Shown here in pieces: positions 2,994 to 54,978 of a DNA stretch of 64,000 nucleotides; the first letter of the stretch is position 1; every line of letters begins with the position of its first letter. Position numbers and translations under genes: made by a program. This DNA is from an uncultured Candidatus Saccharibacteria bacterium. GTDB taxonomy: Bacteria; Patescibacteriota; Saccharimonadia; Saccharimonadales; JAGQMS01. Location: NCBI GenBank assembly GCA_964554485.1, contig CAZKOX010000001.1, positions 9,363 to 73,362 of the forward strand. Direction: 5' to 3'. The notes below the pieces were generated by a model. That model did no database searches and was not told the origin of the DNA. It worked only from the letters and a program-made list of their open reading frames with translations.

Positions 2994-4232
2994 TTATTCT
3001 CGTCGCAACGCATCGATAGGGTTAATTTTAGCTGCTCTTCTGGCTGGCAGGAATACTACGGATAGACCGACCAGAATCATGAATAACACCAACCCAACAA
3101 TTAACCAAACCGGGGTAGCAAAGAGATCGAATGACTCATTGACACCTCTTTGACTAGCGAAACGATAAAGGATTACATTAACTATGGCTCCACCTCCAAC
3201 CGCCAGTACTATTCCAAATATTGATCCAACCAAGGAAAGAAGTATTGCCTCAAAAATAAATAGTCGTTTGACATCTCGGTTTCGTGCGCCCAAGGCCATC
3301 ATAAGGCCAATTTCTTTTGTTCTTTCAAGCAAAGAGACGGTTAGGGTGTTAAACATTCCCAATACAGCAACGATCATTCCGATGGCTCCAAAACCGAATA
3401 GTACGTAGTTAAATACCTTAAAAATTTGATTAATCTGGTCAACTGTGTCGGCAGGAGAAGTTGTAAGCAAACCAAGACTCTCAATTTGCTTACGAAGAGG
3501 GAGGACATTTTCTGTGTGATCAACAACTAGTTTCATTTGAGAATATGAGGTAACTCCGGCATTTTCAAATATATAGTTTGGAATAAAAACTTCACTTCCT
3601 GAACCGGAATCGACAATGCCGACAATAGTATAGGTGTCCTCTATCTCCTTAACTTCAGAGGTGGTTTTATCTTTAAGGGGAATAAGTAGGGATATTTTCT
3701 TGTTTATTAAATTGGTTTTTTCGTCTCCGCCGATAGCTTTAATGACAGAGTGGTTTATGACAGCAACTTTTGCGTCATTATCGCTCATACCCCGTCCTTT
3801 GACGAAATTTAGATTAGCTAGATCTTGATAATTCTTATCATATCCATATACGACGCTATCTATCTCGCTACTGTTGATCTTGAGGCTACCAGGGAAAGAG
3901 AATGATGAACCTATTGTTTGAACATGCGGAAGATTTTTTATCTTTTCCTTCATGCCGCTAGTCAACTTAACCACTTTTGAGTTTGGACTAGTAATGTCAA
4001 TAGATTTTATAGATTGGTTGCCGATAATTTCTTCTGTAACAAGATTTCGAACACCTATGCCGAATGATAGTAAGAAGAATATTGCTCCAATTCCAATAGT
4101 AATTCCAAAAACAGTTAAGAATGTGCGAAGTTTTTTTGAAACTAAGTTCTTCCAGGCAACATGAAGCAGTATTTTTATATTTATCCTGCGGCGCTTACGA
4201 AGCATTTTTGTTACTACATCAGATTTTTCCAT
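2994..4232 (-). CDS. ABC transporter permease, MacB/FtsX-like (N-terminal TM, large extracytoplasmic domain, C-terminal 3-TM FtsX domain)
   Basis: 412 aa; an N-terminal TM helix then a roughly 230-aa soluble domain, then the FtsX-type membrane domain (ALGARNRDVKRLFIFEAILLSLVGS...). Overlaps the upstream ATPase gene by 14 nt. Confidence 0.8.
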   Translation of the reverse strand: MEKSDVVTKMLRKRRRINIKILLHVAWKNLVSKKLRTFLTVFGITIGIGAIFFLLSFGIGVRNLVTEEIIGNQSIKSIDITSPNSKVVKLTSGMKEKIKNLPHVQTIGSSFSFPGSLKINSSEIDSVVYGYDKNYQDLANLNFVKGRGMSDNDAKVAVINHSVIKAIGGDEKTNLINKKISLLIPLKDKTTSEVKEIEDTYTIVGIVDSGSGSEVFIPNYIFENAGVTSYSQMKLVVDHTENVLPLRKQIESLGLLTTSPADTVDQINQIFKVFNYVLFGFGAIGMIVAVLGMFNTLTVSLLERTKEIGLMMALGARNRDVKRLFIFEAILLSLVGSIFGIVLAVGGGAIVNVILYRFASQRGVNESFDLFATPVWLIVGLVLFMILVGLSVVFLPARRAAKINPIDALRRE

Positions 4233-5085
4233 GACTACCTCCTAGTAGATTTTCTGCAGCTTGATCTACGGTCGGCGGAGGCGTTAACGTAGCTGGCGCA
4301 GGAGATCTCTTAGCTGAGAAACGATCAATTCGGGATTTCATATCTTGCATTAGTTTATCTGTTGTTGTGGAAATCGAGTCGCTTACCATCTCCTTAACAT
4401 ATCCATCTTCGATATGGATAAGGTGATCGGCGAGTGGAAGATACTCCATGTTATGCGTAACAAGTATGATTGTTCTTTTAGAATCAGTCTGAGTTGAACG
4501 AAGTAGTTCCATGATTTTGTCGCCACTTTTACTATCAAGGCTGCCCGTCGGCTCGTCGGCGATAATAAACATAGGCCTATTAACAATGGCTCTAGCCATC
4601 GCTACTCTTTGTTGCTCACCCCCGGATAGAAGTATTGGATACTTTTTGGAGTAACTCTGCATTCCAACTTGCTCCAAGGCACGATAGGCTGCTTCTGCGG
4701 CCTTAGCCTTTGTGTACCCAAGAAAATATAGTGGCATCGAAACGTTCTCTATTACGCTTAAACTCTTTACCCAAAAGTTTTGCTGATAAACGATGCCTAT
4801 TTCGTTTGCTCGGAAATGTGCAAGGCGATCTGGCGAAAAGTTATATATGTCGCTCTGATCAAATAATATTTCTCCATTAGTTGGCCTGAGCAGTCCAGTT
4901 AGAATATTAAGCAGAGTTGACTTACCTGATCCTGAGGGACCGTAGATAATATTGAATGTGTTTTCTCTAATTTCGAAACTTACATCTTTCAAGACATCAA
5001 AGGTTTCGTCGCTGACTCTAAAGCTTTGATTGACCCCAGTTGCCTTAATAATTACTCTTTTACTATTATCCATTTTATAGTCCAA
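4219..5085 (-). CDS. ABC transporter ATP-binding protein (MacB/LolD-type) with about 60-aa C-terminal extension
   Basis: Walker A GPSGSGKST, ABC signature LSGGEQQRVAMARA, Walker B IIADEPTGSLD. Start overlaps the giant protein stop by 11 nt. Confidence 0.9.
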   Translation of the reverse strand: MDYKMDNSKRVIIKATGVNQSFRVSDETFDVLKDVSFEIRENTFNIIYGPSGSGKSTLLNILTGLLRPTNGEILFDQSDIYNFSPDRLAHFRANEIGIVYQQNFWVKSLSVIENVSMPLYFLGYTKAKAAEAAYRALEQVGMQSYSKKYPILLSGGEQQRVAMARAIVNRPMFIIADEPTGSLDSKSGDKIMELLRSTQTDSKRTIILVTHNMEYLPLADHLIHIEDGYVKEMVSDSISTTTDKLMQDMKSRIDRFSAKRSPAPATLTPPPTVDQAAENLLGGSHGKI

Positions 5086-8000
5086 AAACTTGCTTTAAGG
5101 TATTGAGAATTATTGTTAACACGCTATCTGATGCTCGTCCGACAATCGCAGATTCTGTTGCACCTAGCCCGGTATTTCCGGCCCTGTCTTTAGAGATTGG
5201 AATTAAACTATAAACACGAGATGTAGGTAGGTCGGAAACAATCACGATGTGTTCAGTGGTTAGTTGAGTGTCCTCGGCGGTTTTGTTGTTGTAATTAGCT
5301 GCATTAGATCCTTCAGCATAGCCAACCTGGCTTGTTGCTGGTTCGTCGGTTTTCCATGAAACAACTACCTGGCCTCTTGCTTCCGCGCCAGTTCCACGAA
5401 TTGCGGATTCAATACTTATCTCTGACACTTTTGGCGGTCTTGTGTCTAGGGCTGTATGAAATTGTTGCCTATCAGAGACTGCAATATTTCCACCTTCATC
5501 TCTAGACTGAGCGACTAAGAAGTACTCGCTGTCGTCTTCAAGGTTACGAATTATTATTTCGTGATCAGTAACCAGATCAAGTACTTGTGCTTCCGTTCCA
5601 CTAGTTCCAACTTTCCCGTATGTAACTAAAGAATTGGCAGGCACGTTTGTTGTCCATGTAACAGTTTGGGTACTGGTTGGTTCGCCGATTATTGGCTGGA
5701 AACGGAGATCAGTTATTCGTGGACGCTGTGGTGTAGTAAACGAGAATACGCTACTTTCGTATGATGAGTTTTCATTATCAAATGTCAAAAGCTTGTAGAA
5801 ATATTTTGTACCATCATCAAGACCTTCAAGCTCGATTGAATAGGTAGATTCAGACAGAGAAGTATTAACTGTTGTGATCCCGCCGTAGTTTTCTCCTTTT
5901 CCGTAAAGTATAGACACCTTGGTTGCCTCTTTAGACGTAAAGGTAATTGCGGCTGTTGTTAAGCCGACGCGGCTAACTGTAATTTCTTTTAAGGACGGGG
6001 CAGGCGATGTGGTGAAGCTAAACTCTTGGCTCGTTCCAGTATTACCATCTTCATCAGTCCACTTTGCTATAGCATAGTAGGTTGTACCAGCACTTAAATT
6101 ATCTAGCTCAATTTCGTGAGCACTTACCTGGGCTGATATTGCTACTTCGGAAGGACTGTATTCACCACTAGCAGTGCCAAGCGCGATTTTTGAATCACTA
6201 GCTCTGTCCGTGCTCCATGAAACAGTAGCGCGTTTTGTGGTGATATTGCTAACTTCTGGGTTAGCGACCAAGGTAGCAGGTGAGGTGAATTTTCCGGTCG
6301 GAACTTCATTTACGACCGAACTATTTGCTCCGCAGTTATTTGTACTGTCGCAAGCTCGAAGGCGGTAGTAGTATCTCTGCTGGGCTAAGCCGGCGTCGAT
6401 ATATGTTGTACTTGAGCTACTGCCTACCTGTGAAAAAGTAGCATTATCGGTTGATCTATAAACCTTATATGAAGAGATTCCTGCCCCAACATCTGCTGGC
6501 TCGTTCCAGGTTATCGCAAGCCGCCAATTGTTAGTTGCCTTAATTGACACATCAACAATGTCGAGGTTTTCCGATATTCCAGGTGAAGGTGTGTTGGCGG
6601 TGAATACGGCAGTTCCGTAGTTGTCGTAGTTGATATTGCTAGACTCGTCTCTAGCGACCACATATATAGTATTTTCACCTGGTTGTGTCGCATAAGGACC
6701 AGCGCCTAGTGCCGTTACTCCAGCTGATGTGAAATTACAATTTATAGATGTTGGTATGGCATTTATCGTGTAACAGTACGTCAGGTTATTTACATCTCCA
6801 ACAAAAGTCGCAGGTGCGTCCCAGTCAAAAGCGAAAGAGTTTGTTACATTACTGGAAGGAGAGGCGATAATATTCAAAGGTTCTGAAGGAGCGCCACTAG
6901 TATTAATCTTAAGAGCAGCGGTTGCATAAGTACTGCTAACATTACCGGCATTATCCCAGGTCCTGAAGTAGACAGTATTTATACCCTCCTCTAAATCTAC
7001 AAAGTCTGGTGTGGGTATTGTGGTGTAACTACCGTCGTTGGCGAGTACGTCGTTTGAGTCACCGGTTCCTGTATGCGAGTCTCCGTACCAATTACCTGCA
7101 CCTATACGGTATTGCAGACCAACTAATCCGGAATTTATATCGCTCGGAGAACTAATTCCAGTGGTAGGCCAAGTTAAAGTAACCTCCTTAGAATTAATAA
7201 ACCCAGAAGGTGCGGTTATGTAAGCCGGGTTGGTTGGTGCGGTGTTATCGAACTTAAATGTGAACTGCTCGGTCGTATTGCTTATGTTTCCGGCGTTGTC
7301 GATGGCTTTGGCGAGTAAATAATAATTAGAATTGGAAGTGCTAAGAGGTGTAGCGATATATCCAGCGGTTGCGGTGTCTATGTTGTTGGTAGATATCATA
7401 AATTGGCAGTGGCCACCGGTTTCTACGGGACTTGTGCCAAGTAAACCTTTTGTAGTAACTGGGTCGGCAGTATCATCTGTCCCAAGATATAAACAATATC
7501 CTTTTATTCCGGATTCGCTATCAACCCCGGCTGTCCAGCTGAAATATGGCGATAGCCCATTAGACCAGGCGCCACTATTCAAGACACTACCTCCGTTAGC
7601 TTTTAGTGCAGCGATACTTGTGGCGTTTGCCGAAGGGTCAATAATATCTGAAGTTGCGGTTGCAGTAACACCATTTAAAGTAACTCTTTGGCTGCCGTCG
7701 CCCTGAAGTATCGCCTCCCATCGTAAACCATTGAACGTAACGGGGAAGCTGCTAATGTTGGTACTAATAGTTGTCTTGTTGTTTGCTTCAGCTATTGATC
7801 CGGATGTTTCCCAACTGTCGCCGTCCCAGTACTTCCATGTTGCGCCGTCATCGGACGAAAGGCGATACAGGATAGTTCCTCCATTTAGGGTTTCGTCAGC
7901 GTCAAAACTATCCCAGTGCCATACACCACTTTGTCGAACAGGTTCATTAAGTGAAATGCTCAAGGCGGCGTTGCTGTATGGTTTAGTGTTAAATGACGAC

Positions 8001-11000
8001 CTATTAATATTAGATATCCGAATCTCATCTAAACTACCTTCGAAGAAACCCTGAGAACGTCCATTATCAAACCCGCCATAAGATTTGCCGATTAATAAAT
8101 CCTGGTCACCGTCAGGAATAGTTAAGCTAGTATTATGAGTGCCAACGCTATTACCATCGATTAATATTTCCATGGTGGTGCCATTGTAGCGTCCTGCTAT
8201 GTGGTGCCAATTAGTATCTTGAGTGCTGGTTGAAGACTGAATAAAACCGTTATTACCGTAAGACCAAATCATGGCGTCGCCATTTGCAGTGTTCCCGGTG
8301 CTTGCGTATAACTTGCCTTGATAAACAACCATCGTTGTAACTTCTTCAATTGTGGTGTCTAGCCAGCTATCATTAAAACCATCGCCACCCACTTGCGCCC
8401 AGGATGTCCCGTTATATCTCCATACTTCACCGTCTCCAGTACTTAAACCGAGGCCGGCGTACAAGTCACCGTTATATGTAGCCATTGAACGAACGCGGTC
8501 GTAGTTATTAGAATCTAGCCAGCCCATATTGTCGCTGCCATTGCTGTCGCCGCCAATTTGCTCCCAGACTGGACTGCCGCTATCACAGTCTGAGCACGCC
8601 CAGACTTCGGCATCGTTGTTTGGAGTACCGGTACCAGATAACCCTAGTCCTACAACTAGCTTGTCGTTCCATACAACCAGAGACTGAATGTCCTCATATT
8701 TTGTGTTTGCCCAGCTGCTGTTTATGGCATCTCCTCCGACTTTTGTCCAAGTCGTACCGCTACCACTATACCGCCAGACCTCTGCTAATCCTGCAGCATT
8801 TGCACCTAGCCCAACATAAAGCGAACCCCTGTATGTTGCCATCGAACTGATGGTTGTATAGCTAGCTGTGCCCCAGTTGCCGGAAGCCGTTCCACCGATT
8901 GCTGCGCCACCCCAGTTAGGGCTCCCGCCGTCACATCCGGTGCATTCCCAGACTTCGCCATCTCCAGCACTTGATCCGAGGCCGGCGTATAATTTTCCAT
9001 TAGCAACACCAAGAGAGTAAACATATTCATAAGTCGTACTCCATGAACTGCCGACGGACGGGCTGCCGTCTGCAACCTTTGTCCAGCCTGGATTATCAAA
9101 TCTCCAAACTTCTGCTTCCCCGGCAGTACTTCCTAAACCGACGTATAATTTATTTTTATAATTTACCATCGACCATACTGCTTCATATGTATCGATAGCC
9201 CAACTGGAATCTATGCCTTGTCCACCAACAACCGACCAGAATCCAGTTGAAGGATCAAGCTCCCAGACAGTCGCATCCCCGGCAGTATTATTTCCAGTGC
9301 CGACATACATTTTGCCTCCGGCTGTAGTCGAAGATTCGATACTATCAATATTGTATTGACCCCAGCTTTTATTGACATATTTTCCACCTATACGATTTCC
9401 ACCCCAAGTTGGTGAACCGCCGTTGCAGTTCGTGCACTGCCAAAAATATGCTTCAGTCGTGTTAGTTAAGCCAGCATATACTGTTGTGTCATCTACAACA
9501 AGTGCTCGAATGCTATTATGCGTTGCATTCCAGCCGCTGTTCACATTGTCACCGCCAACTTTTGTCCAAGAACCGTCATATCGCCATACTTCGTCGTCGC
9601 CGTTTGCTGAGTTTCCTGTACCAACATACAGAGTTGAACCGTTATTGGTAATGCTAAAGATACCTTCTTTATCTACTCCAAAGTTCGCCGAACTTCCTAA
9701 TTTTGTCCAACCACTTCCAGTAGGCGTGCAGTTAATGGTGACATCACAAGACCATATTTCGGCATCGGTATTGGCGGTAATACCTGTACCAACATAAATT
9801 GTATTTCCGTTAGATGCCATCGACAAAACATACTCAGCGACAGACCCCCAACTTTGACCGCCGGCTCCAGAGCCATCACCTCCTCGCTTAGTCCAAGATG
9901 CAGAACCCGGAGTGGTGCAACTGGCGGTGCAATGCCATACTTCTGCATCACCAGCCGTAGAGCCAAGTCCTACCACTGGATTACCACCGACAACGGTCAT
10001 TGCATAAACAACTTCATAACCCGCACCCCAGCCACGAGCGCCACCGGTAGCGTTGTAGCCACCAACACGGCTACTTCCCCAGCTAGGGCTAGTCTCACAG
10101 TTAGTGCACGCCCACACTTCTCCCATATTTGCGCCTGTTCCTAGACCAGCAAATAGTGTCGTTCCGCTTACAGCTAACGAATAGACTCCATTAAAAGCAT
10201 TGCCAGCCCATCCACTATTAAGTCCGTCACCGCCAATTTTAGTCCAGGAACCAGACTTAAATCTCCAAACATCTCCGTCGTTAGTACCTGTTCCCAGACC
10301 GGCATAGAGAACATCTGTGCCGTTAGTCGCTAGGGACAATACTGCCTCGTAGGCATTGGTGCTAATCTCATTATTCCAACTGGAAAAAATACCATCTCCG
10401 GCTACTTGAGCCCACAACCCCAAAGAGGTGTCATATTCCCATATCTCAGCGTCATTAGTGCTGCCACCAAGGGCGGCATATATCTTTGACCCCATCTTTA
10501 CAGATGCGTAGGCGGTTTGTTTTCCATTTTGGTCCCAGCTGCGGTTTACCTTAGCTCCATTATTGGCCAACATGTTATATCCGGCCTGTTGTGTCCAACC
10601 CGTTGATCCTGAATTCTCTAATTCATAAGTAACTTTTCCAGTTTCATTATCGTAGTAGAGCTGGTATTCACCCTTATCTAAGATAGTCTGCCTATATTGT
10701 GAGCTTCCAGCGCTAAAGTTGCTGTCAAATTTTGTCCAACCTTCTAGGGTATTACTTGCTGTGAGCGAAAGCGATGCTGAGTCTGGCGAGATAGCATACT
10801 GAGAAGTGCCGTCTAGGGATAGGCTGTTATTTAAATTACCGGTTGCCCAGATTGGTGTATTGTTTGTGATGGCGTCATTATTGTTTGCAGAAGAATCATC
10901 TGCTGTCGTTCCGCCAAGTTCGTCAAGGTGGAATAGGGCCATGGTGTTAGCGTCGCTTGTGTAGTTCTGGGCTTTCATGCGCACGCTACTACCGCTTGTC

Positions 11001-17343: not shown

Positions 17344-17961
17344 ATGAAGATAGGGGGTGGGCAGTCTAAGGTTTCTATGCATCGAAAGATTAACAATATT
17401 CTGACTGTTATAGTTATTGGACTTGGTAGCTACTTGCTGCTTGCTCCTTTCACGCCATCGATTGATTTTTGGGTAAAGAAGCGAGGTGGTTTTGATACTC
17501 CAAGCTACGCTATTAAAACTGATGTCAAAAAAGCAGTAGCGGATATTCCTTCTGACAACAGATTAGCAATTCCTAGTATTGGTCTAGACGAACACGTTTT
17601 TGAAAGTACTGTGCCGGACGGTATAAACAAAGGTGTATATCAAAGGCCAAAAACCTCAGATCCTTCTCTGGGAAGTAACACGGTTTTTGTTGGACACCGT
17701 TTTTCGTATTTTCCAAATATTCCATCGCCATTTTATAACCTTGATAAGGTTAGTTTAGGTGATGAGATGGTAGTGGTTTGGAAAGGCGTTATCTACAGAT
17801 ATAAGGTCAAAGAGATTAAAGTAGTCGAGCCGACCGAATTTATGGTTGAAGCACCAACCAAAGAGTCGAAATTAACGATCTATACCTGCACGCCACTTTG
17901 GTCGGCGAGTCAGCGTCTTGTGATTATTAGTGAACTAATAACTGAAAGGGCAGCACAATGA
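17344..17961 (+). CDS. sortase family transpeptidase
   Basis: 205 aa, N-terminal TM anchor, catalytic-type His (VFVGHRF), Cys in LTIYTCTP (TLxTC-like) and a downstream Arg. Located 5 nt after the LAQTG substrate gene. Confidence 0.75.
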   Translation: MKIGGGQSKVSMHRKINNILTVIVIGLGSYLLLAPFTPSIDFWVKKRGGFDTPSYAIKTDVKKAVADIPSDNRLAIPSIGLDEHVFESTVPDGINKGVYQRPKTSDPSLGSNTVFVGHRFSYFPNIPSPFYNLDKVSLGDEMVVVWKGVIYRYKVKEIKVVEPTEFMVEAPTKESKLTIYTCTPLWSASQRLVIISELITERAAQ

Positions 17962-33576: not shown

Positions 33577-33800
33577 ATATATTCATTGACAGAAGTATAC
33601 GAAAGTTGTAGATTAATGTTCAGCCTCGTTGAGCAATTAGCTCCGAGGAGTTATTTAACAGGTGTTGGCAAACAAATTGTTTCTTCTTCCCACAGGAGTT
33701 TTTATAGAAATCTTGCCGATACAGACGGCCGCTACTATGTCTTATATTTTAAGATCTAGCAGTGGCCGGCTGTCTCGTATGCAGCTTTCCTAAAAGAAAT

Positions 33801-33874
33801 AGCCCTGTGGTGAAGCTCGGAGTTCACATCTCCCGCACAAGGAGAAGGTCGCGGGTTCAAATCCCGCCAGGGCA
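33801..33874 (+). tRNA. tRNA-like gene, anticodon loop cgCACaa (Val-CAC by position), non-canonical G33 and A1:A72 mismatch
   Basis: Hand-folded cloverleaf: acceptor gccctg/cagggc, D-arm gtga-agctcggagt-tcac (G18G19 present), anticodon stem tctcc/ggaga, T-arm gcggg-ttcaaat-cccgc. Loop lacks U33. Confidence 0.5.
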
Positions 33875-34026
33875 GCGATGATTACAAGTCGAATATCGTC
33901 CGGTTTAATCCGGGGTAGTCATTAGCGAGCAGAGTAATCTGCTTGCGAGGGTTGGCAGACGCGCTAGCGCAGAAAGCCAATTGGGGTGGCGGTCGACCGG
34001 CAACGGTCGACTGCCACTTCACCAAG

Positions 34027-34100
34027 CGGGGATTAGCTCAATCGGTAGAGCACCCACCGTAATACGTGGCAGGTTGTGGATTCGAGTTCCGCATCCCCGA
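34027..34100 (+). tRNA. tRNA gene, identity unresolved (anticodon arm folds as 4-bp stem with 8-nt loop cgtaatac)
   Basis: Acceptor cggggat/atccccg, U8, D-arm gctc-aatcggta-gagc, T-arm gtgga-ttcgagt-tccgc, discriminator A. The anticodon region cccaccgtaatacgtgg cannot form a canonical 5-bp/7-nt arm. Confidence 0.55.
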
Positions 34101-34224
34101 CTGCTTGGAGTGTGAGCGTAAGTCTAGCTTTCCTTGAAGTGAAGGTCTTCGTGTACGAAAGTAAATGGTGGACGGTACTTTTTCACCTAACGAGACCGAC
34201 GACGACACACTCCAGGCAACCCCC

Positions 34225-34297
34225 GCCCTTGTAACTCAGTTGGCAGAGTAGCCGCCTTCAAAGCGGTATGTCATGGGTTCGAATCCCATCAGGGGCA
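34225..34297 (+). tRNA. tRNA with anticodon UCA (UGA-decoding; opal suppressor-like or recoding tRNA), canonical 73-nt class I cloverleaf
   Basis: Acceptor gcccttg/caggggc (one G-U), D-arm actc-agttggca-gagt, anticodon stem gccgc/gcggt with loop c-u-UCA-a-a, variable loop 5 nt, T-arm atggg-ttcgaat-cccat, discriminator A73. Confidence 0.7.
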
Positions 34298-34343
34298 CGT
34301 TTCCGACCACGAAGCGCACGGTATGTGTTCGTGGCGAAACAGG

Positions 34344-34388
34344 GGTGGGGCGACGAGCGAAAGCTTGTTGCCCCACCTATCTTCTTTT
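34344..34388 (+). terminator. Rho-independent terminator after tRNA cluster
   Basis: ggtggggc...gccccacc 8-bp GC stem enclosing an inner stem-loop (gagcgaaagctt), followed by tatcttctttt. Confidence 0.7.
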
Positions 34389-34616: not shown

Positions 34617-34754
34617 ATGACAACTCCGGGCTACAAGCCTTGCCCGAATCCCAAGTGCCAGGGCGGAAAGCATTACGCCAATGGCGCGCAAGTTTTTCTC
34701 GGGCTAGGGACGACTTGCACTACCTGCAATGGCAAGGGCGAAGTGAAGAAGTAA
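34617..34754 (+). CDS. small ORF (45 aa) encoding a zinc-ribbon / DnaJ-type CxxCxGxG finger peptide inside a GC-rich island
   Basis: MTTPGYKPCPNPKCQGGKHYANGAQVFLGLGTTCTTCNGKGEVKK. Strong SD aaaggggtgaag 5-7 nt upstream. Two Cys pairs (CPNPKC, CTTCNGKG). Local GC is clearly above the window average. Confidence 0.4.
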   Translation: MTTPGYKPCPNPKCQGGKHYANGAQVFLGLGTTCTTCNGKGEVKK

Positions 34755-35095
34755 CTTGATCGTCCGCCGGAGCTTATGCGAAGGAGGATGATCGAGGGGA
34801 TACTAAAAAGGTGGCCAACACCTGTATCTCCAATTAGCGTTAAACAAAATGTTTGACGGTAGCTGGAGATAAATATCATACAAAACAAAAGAGGCCGGAT
34901 TTCCAGCCCCTTTATGGGAAGGATTTTGGAGTACTCCACCCCTAGTCTCTTCCACACAATTAGGTTAGCATGGGTCTACTATTAATACGCAAGCATTTTA
35001 ATGATAAATTCGATGTTCGCTTCACAAAATTAACATCTTGAGCTATACTGTTGGGAACTGTTATAAATATTACTAATTGTTAGAGGAGTTTTTTA

Positions 35096-53158: not shown

Positions 53159-54577
53159 ATGAGCTGGAAATCCATAACTGAAATTGCTAAAGAAGTTAAC
53201 TCTGGAAAAACTAGCGCTGTTGAGAACGTCAAAAATTCTCTAAAAACAATTGAGTCAAAAAGTGAGTTTAAAGCCATAATCGCTACTCTTGAAAAAAGAG
53301 CATTGGAGCGAGCAAGGCAAATAGACGATATGATCAAGCAAGGAAAAAATGCTGGTCGTTTGGCGGGCGTGCCGTTTATCGCTAAAGATAATATTTTAGT
53401 TTTCGGAGCTGATACAACTGCCGCCAGTAATATCCTGAAAGGCTTTGATGCACCATATCAAGCAACTGTAATAGAGAAGCTAGAAGCCGAGGGGGCAATT
53501 TGTGTAGCAAAAGCAAATCTTGATGCTTTTGGTCATGGCGCAAGTACAGAAAACAGTGACTTTTTTACGACCTTAAACCCGAAAGATAAATCACGGGTAT
53601 CTGGCGGTTCATCAGGTGGACCGGTGGCTGCAGTAATGCTTGATATGGCCCCATTTGCTCTTGCCACCGACACCGGCGGATCTATTCGTTTACCAGCGTC
53701 TTTTTCTGGAGCTGTAGGTTACAAACCAACCTATGGACTAGTGTCGCGCTACGGTGTTGTAGCAATGAATTCTAGTACCGATACCGTTGGACCGATTGCT
53801 AAAACTGTGGAAGATGCAGCTTTGATATTAGATATCATTGCTGGTAAAGACATACTAGATAGCACGACAATCATGAGAGAAGATGGCTATGAAGCAACAC
53901 CTCTTGATTTGAAGGGTGTAAAAATTGGGGTTGTTGAAGAATACATGGGTGAAGGAGTGGATCCAGGGGTTAAAAAGATAATAAAAGAAGCCATTAGCAT
54001 TCTTCAGGGTAGAGGTGCAGAAATCGTAGAAGTTAGTTTGCCGAGCCTTGCGTATTCTTTGGCGGTTTATTACATTATTTGTCCGGCAGAGGTTAGTAGT
54101 AACCTTGGTCGTTATGATGGTCAGCGTTTTGGGCATTCGTCTAAGGGCGCGAAAGACCTCGAAGGTAGCTATGCTATGTCCCGCGCCGAGGGTTTTGGGG
54201 CTGAAGCTAAGCGTCGAATCATGATTGGCACCTATGTGCTGTCTAGTGGTTATTATGAGGCTTATTATAAAAAAGCAGCTCTCGTTAGAACTAAACTTAT
54301 AAACGAATTTAACGATGTCTTTAACAGCGTTGATTTTCTTGTCGGTCCAGTTTCTCCGGTAACTGCTTTTAAGGTTGGTGAAAATATAAACGATCCACTA
54401 AAGATGTATCTAATTGACATTATGACGGTCGCTGCCAGTCTAATTGGCTCACCGGCAATTAGTGTTCCCGCCGGTCTAAGTGACGGTCTGCCGGTTGGAT
54501 TGCAAATAATTGCACCTTGGGGTAAAGATAAAAGTCTACTAAATGCAGCGGCGGCATTTACGGGAGAGAATAAATAA
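53159..54577 (+). CDS. gatA: Glu-tRNA(Gln) amidotransferase subunit A (amidase signature enzyme)
   Basis: Amidase signature GGSSGG..ALATDTGGSIR. Confidence 0.9.
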   Translation: MSWKSITEIAKEVNSGKTSAVENVKNSLKTIESKSEFKAIIATLEKRALERARQIDDMIKQGKNAGRLAGVPFIAKDNILVFGADTTAASNILKGFDAPYQATVIEKLEAEGAICVAKANLDAFGHGASTENSDFFTTLNPKDKSRVSGGSSGGPVAAVMLDMAPFALATDTGGSIRLPASFSGAVGYKPTYGLVSRYGVVAMNSSTDTVGPIAKTVEDAALILDIIAGKDILDSTTIMREDGYEATPLDLKGVKIGVVEEYMGEGVDPGVKKIIKEAISILQGRGAEIVEVSLPSLAYSLAVYYIICPAEVSSNLGRYDGQRFGHSSKGAKDLEGSYAMSRAEGFGAEAKRRIMIGTYVLSSGYYEAYYKKAALVRTKLINEFNDVFNSVDFLVGPVSPVTAFKVGENINDPLKMYLIDIMTVAASLIGSPAISVPAGLSDGLPVGLQIIAPWGKDKSLLNAAAAFTGENK

Positions 54578-54978
54578 TGTTGGCGCTTGTTGTAGCGATT
54601 GTAGCGGCTGTTATTGTACTTTTTGCGCTGTTTGGCTTAGTAGGCAAGAATCAACCTGGGCTTGAAAAAGGACCGTTTCGTGAAGCTTGGCGAGGAATAA
54701 TTGAGAAGGCTGCAAGTGAATCTACCTTTGCACTTGCGATTATAAATGCCGATAAGCTTCTTGACAGTGCTTTGAAGAAACGTAACTTTAAAGGTGAAAC
54801 AATGGGTGAACGACTCGTTAGCGCGAAAAATACACTTAGTAGACGTCAGCGAGTCTGGGAGGCACACAAATTACGTAATCGACTAGTTCATGATGAGGCT
54901 GTTCGTCTTGACCGTAAAAAAACCTTGGAAGCACTTAAGGGCTATGAGTCAGCGTTAAAAGATTTAGGAGCACTATGA
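54577..54978 (+). CDS. hypothetical membrane-anchored protein (133 aa) inserted between gatA and gatB
   Basis: N-terminal TM helix then a charged soluble part. Start overlaps the gatA stop; its TGA stop overlaps the gatB ATG. Confidence 0.5.
   Translation: MLALVVAIVAAVIVLFALFGLVGKNQPGLEKGPFREAWRGIIEKAASESTFALAIINADKLLDSALKKRNFKGETMGERLVSAKNTLSRRQRVWEAHKLRNRLVHDEAVRLDRKKTLEALKGYESALKDLGAL

Follow-up and report, generated by a model that had tools for sequence, protein, structure and literature searches.

A tRNA gene with anticodon UCA in a conserved operon of anticodon-variable tRNA genes of a probable Saccharibacteria-like bacterium

RESULTS

The UCA gene is a canonical tRNA gene, and TGA serves as a stop codon around it

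A tRNA gene with the anticodon UCA, which would read the stop codon UGA, lies in a 64-kb stretch of DNA (the window) from what is probably a Saccharibacteria-like genome of the candidate phyla radiation (CPR). We found that this gene, t3, is the third cistron of a chromosomal three-tRNA operon that extends from promoter to terminator (33586-34388) and has counterparts with other anticodons at the same chromosomal site in related lineages. This context, a conserved operon of irregular, anticodon-variable tRNAs, moves the interpretation of t3 away from UGA readthrough and toward one allele of a diversifying tRNA-like cassette. We favor, with moderate confidence, the view that UCA is an allele of a fast-diversifying accessory tRNA (or tRNA-like) cassette in which UGA suppression would be selected little, if at all; to call this gene a "suppressor device" is probably misleading. 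Our literature search turned up no paper in which Saccharibacteria or other CPR bacteria were themselves reported to encode suppressor or anticodon-variable tRNAs, and none on such an operon locus, which appears to be undescribed.

ARAGORN called t3 at 34225-34298 on the plus strand, with the anticodon tca starting at position 34, and the Rfam tRNA family RF00005 covered 34225-34297 end to end, over its full model (1-71), with 70.2 bits (gathering score, 29; E = 2.7e-13 when the entire window is searched). The minimum free energy (MFE) fold (-27.3 kcal/mol, z = -2.7) gave a cloverleaf identical to the Infernal alignment. It consists of a 7-bp acceptor stem (GCCCUUG/CAGGGGC, including a U5·G68 wobble), a D arm with a 4-bp stem and with U8, A14, G18G19, and A21 present, a 5-bp anticodon stem (GCCGC/GCGGU) closing the loop C32-U33-U34-C35-A36-A37-A38, a variable loop of 5 nt (AUGUC), and a 5-bp T stem with the T loop UUCGAAU; the gene ends in the discriminator A73, and CCA is not encoded. 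These are the features of a canonical elongator-type tRNA of RF00005, for which we checked the 7/5 cloverleaf and positions U8, A14, G18G19, U33, G53-U54-U55-C56, A58, and C61. The gene is a genuine, structurally canonical tRNA gene with the anticodon UCA. The initial annotation had claimed as much, and by ARAGORN, Infernal, and the MFE fold all its structural details were correct; since Infernal agrees with the tRNA and anticodon that ARAGORN found in the window, the objection that the anticodon register might be another fails. Among the three modules of the operon t3 is the most canonical, and it scored 86.1 bits against R1, a model built for the locus family.

The stop codons of the 50 nonoverlapping long open reading frames (ORFs) of the window comprised 25 TAA, 18 TAG, and 6 TGA, the latter being the rarest (12%). 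Among the genes ended by TGA are all four that the initial annotation had named in stating that TGA is a stop here, namely pheS (in an ATGA overlap with pheT), the His-phosphatase gene, pfkB, and the ORF between gatA and gatB. The six TGA-terminated genes are the ORFs at 4219-5085 (minus strand), 17344-17961, and 54577-54978, together with pheS, the His-phosphatase gene, and pfkB. The Pfam domain of PheS stops at residue 343/344, directly before the TGA, and this TGA is kept in two relatives. Under code 11 the coding density of the window was 92.5%, no in-frame TGA was found in any of its ORFs, and reading TGA as a sense codon fused no coding-strand ORFs in the window. Five of the six TGA stops have A as the next base; the next in-frame stop follows after a median of 9 codons, no different from TAA and TAG. 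Judged by this window, the host genome is not recoded, and the earlier statement that there is no global recoding holds.

According to Pfam, run on all 50 ORFs, the surroundings of t3 contain housekeeping genes only, for 30 kb on each side; the window encodes phosphoketolase, sortase and pilin, tyrS, pheST, rplY, trxB, gap, pentose-phosphate genes, uvrB, gatCAB, dnaE, and a pilus ATPase. No phage, transposon, selenocysteine (Sec), or release factor genes were found among the 50 ORFs, SelA, SelB, and SelD had no match among them, and the window contains no ProRS-like gene or other synthetase paralogue, no toxin-antitoxin genes, and no reverse transcriptase, integrase, or invertase. A diversity-generating retroelement or recombinase beside the operon was rejected for want of such a gene in the window. 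The only named relatives of the L25 protein of the window, at 42 to 43% identity, are from Candidatus Saccharibacteria/Saccharimonadales, and the gene content (with a sortase-dependent pilin and a split transketolase) and the G+C content of 43% are what we take to be fitting for a Saccharibacteria-like CPR member.

The operon is conserved in place while its anticodon arms turn over

Contigs of relatives (designated by L numbers) were found by exact-protein look-ups of L25 and His-phosphatase relatives, and about a dozen allele sets were recovered, all on short metagenome contigs. The family is defined by the promoter and leader hairpin, a covarying leader and trailer, two or three tRNA modules with stem-closed spacers, and the pheT/DUF2207-rplY site; the window shares these features with L014, L016, L020, L030, L031, L053, and L043-L052. 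The operon appears to be specific to a Saccharibacteria-like (CPR) lineage. The locus lies at the same site, pheT/DUF2207(/His-phosphatase)-rplY, in lineages whose L25 is 57 to 100% identical to that of the window. At the DNA level, the window and L014 were 92% identical in the leader, 87% in spacer 1, 93% in spacer 2, and 100% in t1 (75/75, as also in L039-42), compared with 81 to 82% in the flanking protein genes, 70% in t2, and 60% in t3. Being more conserved than the coding genes, t1 and the spacers are under stronger constraint; t2 and t3 turn over faster than either. In an alignment of 22 distinct modules, which was fitted to the model and so favors pairing, 96% of the cells fell into standard pairs (41 to 51% in slid controls), and 20/21 pairs had changes on both sides, with all four helices affected. 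From this pattern of paired substitutions we infer that the structure of the tRNA modules is under selection.

The turnover was chiefly in the anticodon arm; the acceptor, the T arm, and the cloverleaf pairing were kept. In slot 1 the anticodon CAC occurs on two unrelated bodies. The acceptor of slot 2 is constant (CGGGGAU/AUCCCCG-A), and orthologues keep the acceptor and D arm and have other anticodon and T arms; the anticodons found here were UAAU and AACA (each in an 8-nt loop), ACA, and UGG, plus one 5-nt loop. The 8-nt loops read CGUAAUAC, CGUAAAAC, and CUAACAGG, and the 7-nt loops read UUACAAA and CUACAGG (ACA) and CUUGGAG (UGG). Some slot 2 alleles have D-loop insertions of about 60 and 95 nt, and the L053 version has only the acceptor/T half, having lost the D/anticodon half. 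In slot 3, the CUUCAAA loop (UCA) of the window was seen in no other contig. In L020, from a 92% species, the loop is CCAUCAA (AUC with C33), and 8 contigs share this sequence; L014 has CUAUCAA (AUC) and a 14-nt hairpin inserted in the D loop; and L016, the L25 protein of which is the same as that of L014, has CUCGUAA (CGU). L031 has GGG on a Gly-like body. In the 57% species, strains with an identical L25 protein have GCC or UCC in module 1 and GAA or AUC in module 2. Across the family the irregular features include G33, C33, loops of 6 or 8 nt, A34 anticodons, D loops enlarged by long insertions, and a module that has lost its bottom half.

How such a change may come about is illustrated by L047 and L049, the most similar pair of strains in the 57% species. 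Their flanks differ at 11/1124 positions in the ABC gene (99% identical) and at 1/651 in rplY; the RNA locus (724 nt) has 10 differences, 8 of which are confined to a tract of 26 nt in the second tRNA, where they change GAA to AUC and also alter the 5' strand of the T stem. Judged by this clustering, the change is a replaced patch and not scattered mutation. The t3 genes of the window and of L020 share the acceptor stem and D arm but for one difference, and they differ in two compensatory anticodon-stem pairs and in loop positions 33-36. The UCA loop CUUCAAA is one substitution away from the ACA loop UUACAAA and a one-base register slip away from the AUC loop CUAUCAA, and both ACA and AUC recur in the operon family. 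The closeness of the UCA loop to these two makes an origin within the operon family the simplest one on sequence grounds. The initial annotation had raised a recently mutated Trp, Arg, or Gly tRNA as the source, which is not the reading that we prefer, as the orthologous slot carries AUC (in the sister species) or CGU and the likeness of the body is generic.

A further variable element was seen in L043-L052, where the hairpin directly 3' of the second tRNA (e.g., L047, approximately 1932-1965) is hypervariable among near-identical strains; the stems are wholly different and always long and perfect. Its counterpart in the window is at 34343-34378.

Architecture of the operon

The features of the operon are listed in Table 1. 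It lies between pheST/DUF2207/His-phosphatase on one side and rplY on the other and has a G+C content of 55 to 61%. The TTGACA box is found at an equal relative position in L014, L020, L039, L041, L042, and L053. Two more tRNA-like genes, t1 and t2, stand just upstream of t3 and had been overlooked in the initial annotation. Both are irregular: t1 has the anticodon CAC in the loop CGCACAA, with G33 in place of U33, which is near-universal in tRNAs, an A1·A72 mismatch, and G73, and t2 has a Pro-like end (C1-G72/A73), an anticodon stem of 4 bp, and one of the 8-nt loops given above (CGUAAUAC).

Table 1 Features of the three-tRNA operon and of the unit that contains it
Feature	Position in window	Strand	Basis and remarks
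Sigma-70-like promoter, TTGACA-17-TAGATT	33586-33614	+	Consensus scan, 10/12
Conserved leader RNA	33615-33800	+	Hairpin CCUCGUUGAGC...GCUCCGAGG
5' arm of long-range helix	33658-33669	+	ACAGGUGUUGGC; 12 nt, inside leader
t1, irregular tRNA	33801-33875	+	ARAGORN; Rfam, 45.4 bits
Spacer 1	33876-34026	+	RNAalifold; four hairpin domains, including GNRA-type loops
t2, irregular tRNA	34027-34100	+	ARAGORN ("tRNA-???"); Rfam, 50.1 bits (evalue run); MFE fold
Spacer 2	34101-34224	+	RNAalifold; 13-bp closing stem UGCUUGGAGUGUG/CACACUCCAGGCA
t3, canonical 73-nt tRNA	34225-34297	+	UCA at 34258-34260, loop CUUCAAA, A73
Terminator-like GC-rich 16-bp hairpin and T-run	34343-34388	+	Terminator scan
Small ORF, 45 aa, two CxxC motifs	34617-34754	+	Translation; strong Shine-Dalgarno sequence GAAAGGGGUGA
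3' arm of long-range helix	34814-34825	+	GCCAACACCUGU; complementary to 33658-33669

The spacers are structured, and their pairing covaries. The RNAalifold consensus of spacer 1 has 53 pairs, 4 of them with compensatory changes (for example, C-G to G-C in the 17-bp hairpin preceding t2), and that of spacer 2 has 32 pairs, 7 of them compensatory, among them a U-A pair of the closing stem that is C-G in L030; this closing stem abuts the 3' end of t2 and the 5' end of t3. The terminator-like hairpin has another sequence in the relatives, with pairing always kept in the alignment. The 12-nt complement between leader and trailer was the best such pairing in every locus and brackets a 1.1-kb unit; across loci it is 10 to 12 nt long and covaries between species in three versions (ACAGGTGTTGGC/GCCAACACCTGT, CCAGGTGTTGAC/GTCAACACCTGG, and ACAGGTAGTA/TACTACCTGT). 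Two roles are conceivable for it, that of an RNA processing stem of the kind known from rRNA operons and that of DNA inverted repeats. The leader, the spacers, and the tail had no match to known RNA families in Rfam, even at an E value of up to 5, and the anticodon loops had no conserved complement inside the locus that would point to kissing loops.

The small ORF lies within the helix-bracketed unit, and its matches to DnaJ_CXXCXGXG were below threshold. Longer homologues stand at the equivalent place in L014 (approximately 9483-9668), L020, and L053 (approximately 3680-3850). Together with the ORF of the window they make up a Cys-rich family of 45 to 62 aa with two to four CxxC(xGxG) motifs and a sequence that is very variable between species; the L014 version has a very weak match to Anti-TRAP (E = 0.61), L031 has an unrelated 58-aa ORF instead, and the 57% species has none. 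Just upstream of the rplY promoter we observed a conserved element of about 70 nt, with a hairpin (GGAAGAGAC.AGGGGUGGAGUACUCC...CCUUCCC) and an intrinsic terminator. Rfam did not match this element, which is possibly a small RNA gene. Its orientation differs between species: it is on the minus strand in the window (34885-34955), L014, L020, and L037 and on the plus strand in L030 (approximately 5834) and L031 (approximately 5669).

Two relatives have peculiarities of their own. L014 has an extra 109-aa ORF (3197-3526) between pheS and pheT and no His-phosphatase gene, with about 450 nt of repeat-like noncoding DNA there instead (7800-8240). In L053 (a 64% species), the first slot of the operon (approximately 3450-3545) is occupied by a class II-like module with a long variable arm, G3·U70, and A73, which was called by neither ARAGORN nor Rfam; G3·U70 is the alanine identity pair.

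Amino acid identity of t3 and coding capacity of its relatives

The discriminator A73 does not fit the bacterial Trp (G73), Gly (U73), Cys (U73), or Sec identity, and the earlier argument from A73 against Trp, Gly, and Sec agrees with these generally known rules. Gly identity comprises U73, G1-C72, C2-G71, and G3-C70; A20 is a determinant of Arg, U35 of Lys, and G35-U36 of Thr. The t3 gene has C20 and not A20, lacks both U35 and G35-U36, and combines A73 with C35-A36, so that by textbook rules no complete synthetase identity set is found in it. Its body is of a generic A10-U25/A73 type with a 5' half common to Lys, Thr, Asn, and Ile tRNAs of phages and bacteria, and its resemblance to Thr-, Lys-, and Arg(UCU)-type tRNAs is likewise only generic. 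As a whole, the gene is 78 to 79% identical to a Streptomyces-phage tRNA-Arg(UCU), one anticodon base away; the phage matches in general (78 to 84%) represent generic tRNA similarity. A pattern scan of genome contigs with the D and T arms, in which any anticodon was allowed, yielded nothing but unrelated tRNA-Lys, -Gly, and -Ala genes, a metagenome scan with the t1 loop and T arm returned only unrelated tRNA arrays, and scans of phage collections with the t1 pattern and a spacer motif gave no match.

The A34 anticodons AUC and ACA of the sister alleles are, to our knowledge, not used by bacteria. In carriers of AUC, GAU is the main Asp codon (0.56 to 0.61 of Asp codons, approximately 36 per 1,000 codons). 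Efficient decoding of GAU by a tRNA of another identity would come at a heavy cost, and the sister alleles are unlikely to be efficient decoders. The irregular features of the family, among them the G33 that is perfectly conserved in t1, also speak against routine decoding. Between carriers of different alleles we found no shift in the use of GAU, UGU, GUG, or TGA, in what were small samples.

DISCUSSION

In the interpretation that we favor, the whole operon would give rise to a single precursor transcript. RNase P and RNase Z would cleave this precursor at the tRNA modules, so that tRNA-shaped RNAs and conserved spacer domains are released. Selection would act on the tRNA-shaped scaffold and a loop-dependent interaction and not on routine decoding, and the anticodon arm would be a fast-changing, possibly interaction-specific surface. 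The greater conservation of the spacer RNAs relative to the tRNAs suggests that the spacers, too, have a function. The identity elements of the UCA RNA (A73 and C35-A36, with A20 absent) do not add up to the set of any synthetase; the RNA would therefore be poorly charged or uncharged, and UGA readthrough would be weak at most, a by-product and not a selected recoding device.

Several observations weigh against this interpretation. With U33, A37, A38, an intact elbow, and 70 bits, t3 has no bar in its sequence to ribosomal use. About half of the family alleles pair an ordinary anticodon with a discriminator that fits the cognate synthetase (Val CAC/A73, Thr CGU/A73, Phe GAA/A73, Gly GCC or UCC/U73, and Pro UGG with C1-G72/A73), and, to judge from these pairs, some of the operon modules may be working tRNAs. 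The anticodons CAC, ACA, and AUC stay in their slots despite body swaps, which suggests that the triplet itself matters and is not predicted by a model of pure processing signals. Finally, the UCA allele was seen in one assembly only. Conspecific contigs (approximately 98% identity) occur in at least five other samples, and all of them end before t3 or begin after it; runs with such contigs are DRR784962, DRR783842, SRR24750957, SRR33293569, SRR31051132, SRR13225481, and ERZ4201044. A look-up with the small ORF for a second UCA copy gave no match. Contigs of L016, L023, L029, L037, and L039-L042 also end or begin inside the operon. These breaks, which are consistent with strain heterogeneity or with repeated tRNA k-mers, are the reason that the UCA allele is known from a single contig.

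The alternative that survives best, possible though doubtful, is that t3 is a bona fide opal suppressor, transcribed, processed, CCA tailed, and charged, which competes with RF2 and causes low-level, possibly useful UGA readthrough. The charging enzyme could be TrpRS, through C35-A36, ArgRS, through C35, or ThrRS or LysRS, through the acceptor. The fully canonical cloverleaf with its U33 and A36-A37-A38 context agrees with this possibility, as do the strong promoter ahead of the gene, the rarity of TGA among the stops with a backup stop close behind, and the resemblance of several sister alleles to ordinary working tRNAs. The likeness of the body to the phage tRNA-Arg(UCU) points the same way. 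A UCU-to-UCA mutant of phage T4 tRNA-Arg is a working UGA suppressor. The textbook identity rules, however, speak against charging as Trp, Gly, or Cys (A73) and as Arg, Lys, or Thr (missing determinants). Moreover, UCA is not conserved, the orthologous slot of relatives holding AUC or CGU; the backup stops are no closer after TGA than after TAA or TAG; and the TGA stops of pheS and the His-phosphatase gene are common to strains or species that carry other alleles.

A bolder reading, which we consider rather unlikely, is that of a dedicated, highly expressed operon in which rapid, localized replacement of anticodon arms yields strain-specific noncognate decoders as a population-level diversification system. 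The arms would be replaced by short-tract recombination or templated replacement. The decoders would include the UGA suppressor UCA and the A34 anticodons AUC and ACA, each reading one codon, and they would serve strain-specific recoding or mistranslation or act as variable tRNA mimics against phages, hosts, or tRNA-targeting toxins.

It is improbable that the modules are decaying redundant copies (of former Val-CAC, Pro, and Thr-CGU tRNAs) with UCA as a neutral change that precedes the disappearance of the gene. Former working tRNAs would indeed have ordinary anticodons with matching discriminators, as some alleles do, and disabling features are present elsewhere in the family (6- and 8-nt loops, G33 or C33, D-loop insertions, and the half-lost module of L053). 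Decay, however, does not account for the compensatory double changes that keep the pairing in all four helices, for the complete conservation of the irregular t1 next to genes at 81%, for the retention of the locus in place where L25 is only 57% identical, or for changes that come as clustered multibase patches; nor would dead DNA behind a consensus promoter be expected, we infer, in the small genomes of CPR bacteria.

We regard as very unlikely an assembly or consensus artifact at a strain-variable site, the true allele being, e.g., AUC, ACA, or CCA. The region is indeed strain variable, the conspecific contigs repeatedly break inside the operon, and no second contig spanning t3 with UCA was found. 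The anticodon arm is nevertheless self-consistent, its stem having 5 bp and its loop 7 nt. Some 10 positions, the two compensatory stem pairs among them, and not just one base, distinguish it from the sister allele, and its flanks match conspecific contigs at approximately 98%.

Similar RNAs are known from several other systems. Standard-code bacteria have been described to contain polycistrons of irregular tRNAs, and anticodon-diverse allo-tRNAs were found in metagenomes; several of these RNAs, whose function is unknown, are charged but unused in translation (Mukai et al. 2017; PMC5389517). The present operon resembles them in being a cluster of nonstandard tRNAs in a standard-code host with diverse anticodons, including nonsense and missense ones, that mismatch the identity of the body. 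The allo-tRNAs of that study are of Ser or Ala identity, with a long variable arm and an 8/4 or 9/3 acceptor/T structure, and in Acidobacteria, Clostridia, and Proteobacteria they occur in linkage with toxin-antitoxin or transposon genes (PMC5389517). In contrast, all modules of the window align to the 7/5 model, for which reason we rejected their assignment to the allo-tRNAs, and they lie at a housekeeping site in a CPR lineage with no toxin-antitoxin or mobile genes nearby; the operon also differs from the allo-tRNA polycistrons in its conserved structured spacers, its bracketing helix, and, often, a small DnaJ-like zinc finger ORF. The tRNAProX of Streptomyces and Kitasatospora (tRNAProA/T/N) combine a Pro chassis (C1:G72, A73, A33, and A34) with Ala, Thr, or Asn anticodons, are encoded beside a dedicated ProRSx, and have been demonstrated to cause mistranslation (PMC10404621). 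Common to both systems are one chassis with strain-varying noncognate anticodons, A34, and a residue other than U33, and t2, with its non-Pro loops, matches the acceptor end C1:G72 and A73. For t3 itself this type was rejected, since it has G1-C72 and not C1:G72 and the window has no ProRS-like gene. A nontranslational role is on record for the tRNA-like tRNA-Other of Bacillus cereus (cited in PMC5389517). Like functional spacers of tRNA operons, it offers a parallel of tRNA-shaped RNAs that stand beside normal genes and are not used on ribosomes; it has no sequence relationship with the present RNAs, whose role is deduced from conservation patterns only.

The suppressor tRNAs of recoded phages come close to t3 in form: contigs of IMG/VR carry UCA tRNAs of canonical length with the loop CUUCAAA and the same T-arm pattern. 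The viral UCA tRNAs that we retrieved nevertheless have an unrelated body, and the window has neither phage or mobile genes nor recoded ORFs. As the spacers and t1 are also without a viral match, an origin from a phage or mobile element, which the initial annotation had considered, was rejected. Two other kinds of phage tRNA in IMG/VR were of note. A 90-nt tRNA with CUA (an amber suppressor type; ARAGORN, "Pyl") in L058 (577-666) and L059 (2405-2494) shares its first 25 nt, including C1, with t2, and tRNAs with an 8-nt anticodon loop (four-base "uugg") in L061 (766-843), L066 (1665-1742), and L077 (2158-2235) match the 5' half of the body of t3.

We give next to no weight to t3 being a tRNA-Sec or the tRNA of a code in which UGA is reassigned. 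Code 25 lineages are CPR bacteria as well, ARAGORN prints "tRNA-SeC" for t3, a label that reflects the anticodon alone, and the tRNA-Trp(UCA) of code 4 and the tRNA-Gly(UCA) of code 25 (Gracilibacteria/Absconditabacteria) are also class I 7/5 tRNAs with the same anticodon-loop sequence. The identity sets of these two tRNAs are, however, absent from t3, which has A73 and not G73 (Trp) or U73 (Gly) and C3-G70 in place of G3-C70; in-frame TGA occurs throughout code 4 and code 25 genomes and nowhere in the window, where TGA ends six genes. Likeness to tRNA-Sec is confined to the anticodon and the ARAGORN label. Bacterial tRNA-Sec has an 8/5 fold (a 13-bp acceptor/T branch), 90 to 101 nt, a long variable arm, a 6-bp D stem, and G73 (PMC5330540), and t3, with its 7/5 fold, 73 nt, 5-nt variable loop, 4-bp D stem, and A73, departs from it in every respect, as the initial annotation had concluded; its best Rfam family is tRNA and not tRNA-Sec, and none of SelA, SelB, and SelD was found among the 50 ORFs.

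A tRNA that reads a stop codon where that stop is still in use is the raw material of genetic code change, and few natural tRNAs of this kind are known outside phages and recoded lineages. In the case of t3, UCA is one state of a conserved locus whose anticodons change between species and between strains that are 96.5 to 99% identical in a flanking gene, with the tRNA shape retained. Annotation pipelines will mislead here, labeling the genes of the operon tRNA-Sec, tRNA-Asp, tRNA-Cys, or "undetermined." If these RNAs carry amino acids, the locus would amount to a natural experiment in codon reassignment and deliberate mistranslation in CPR bacteria, the group to which the code 25 lineages also belong. 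If they do not, it would represent a tRNA-mimic RNA operon of a new class, whose spacers are conserved and structured, in bacteria whose noncoding RNA biology is almost unknown.

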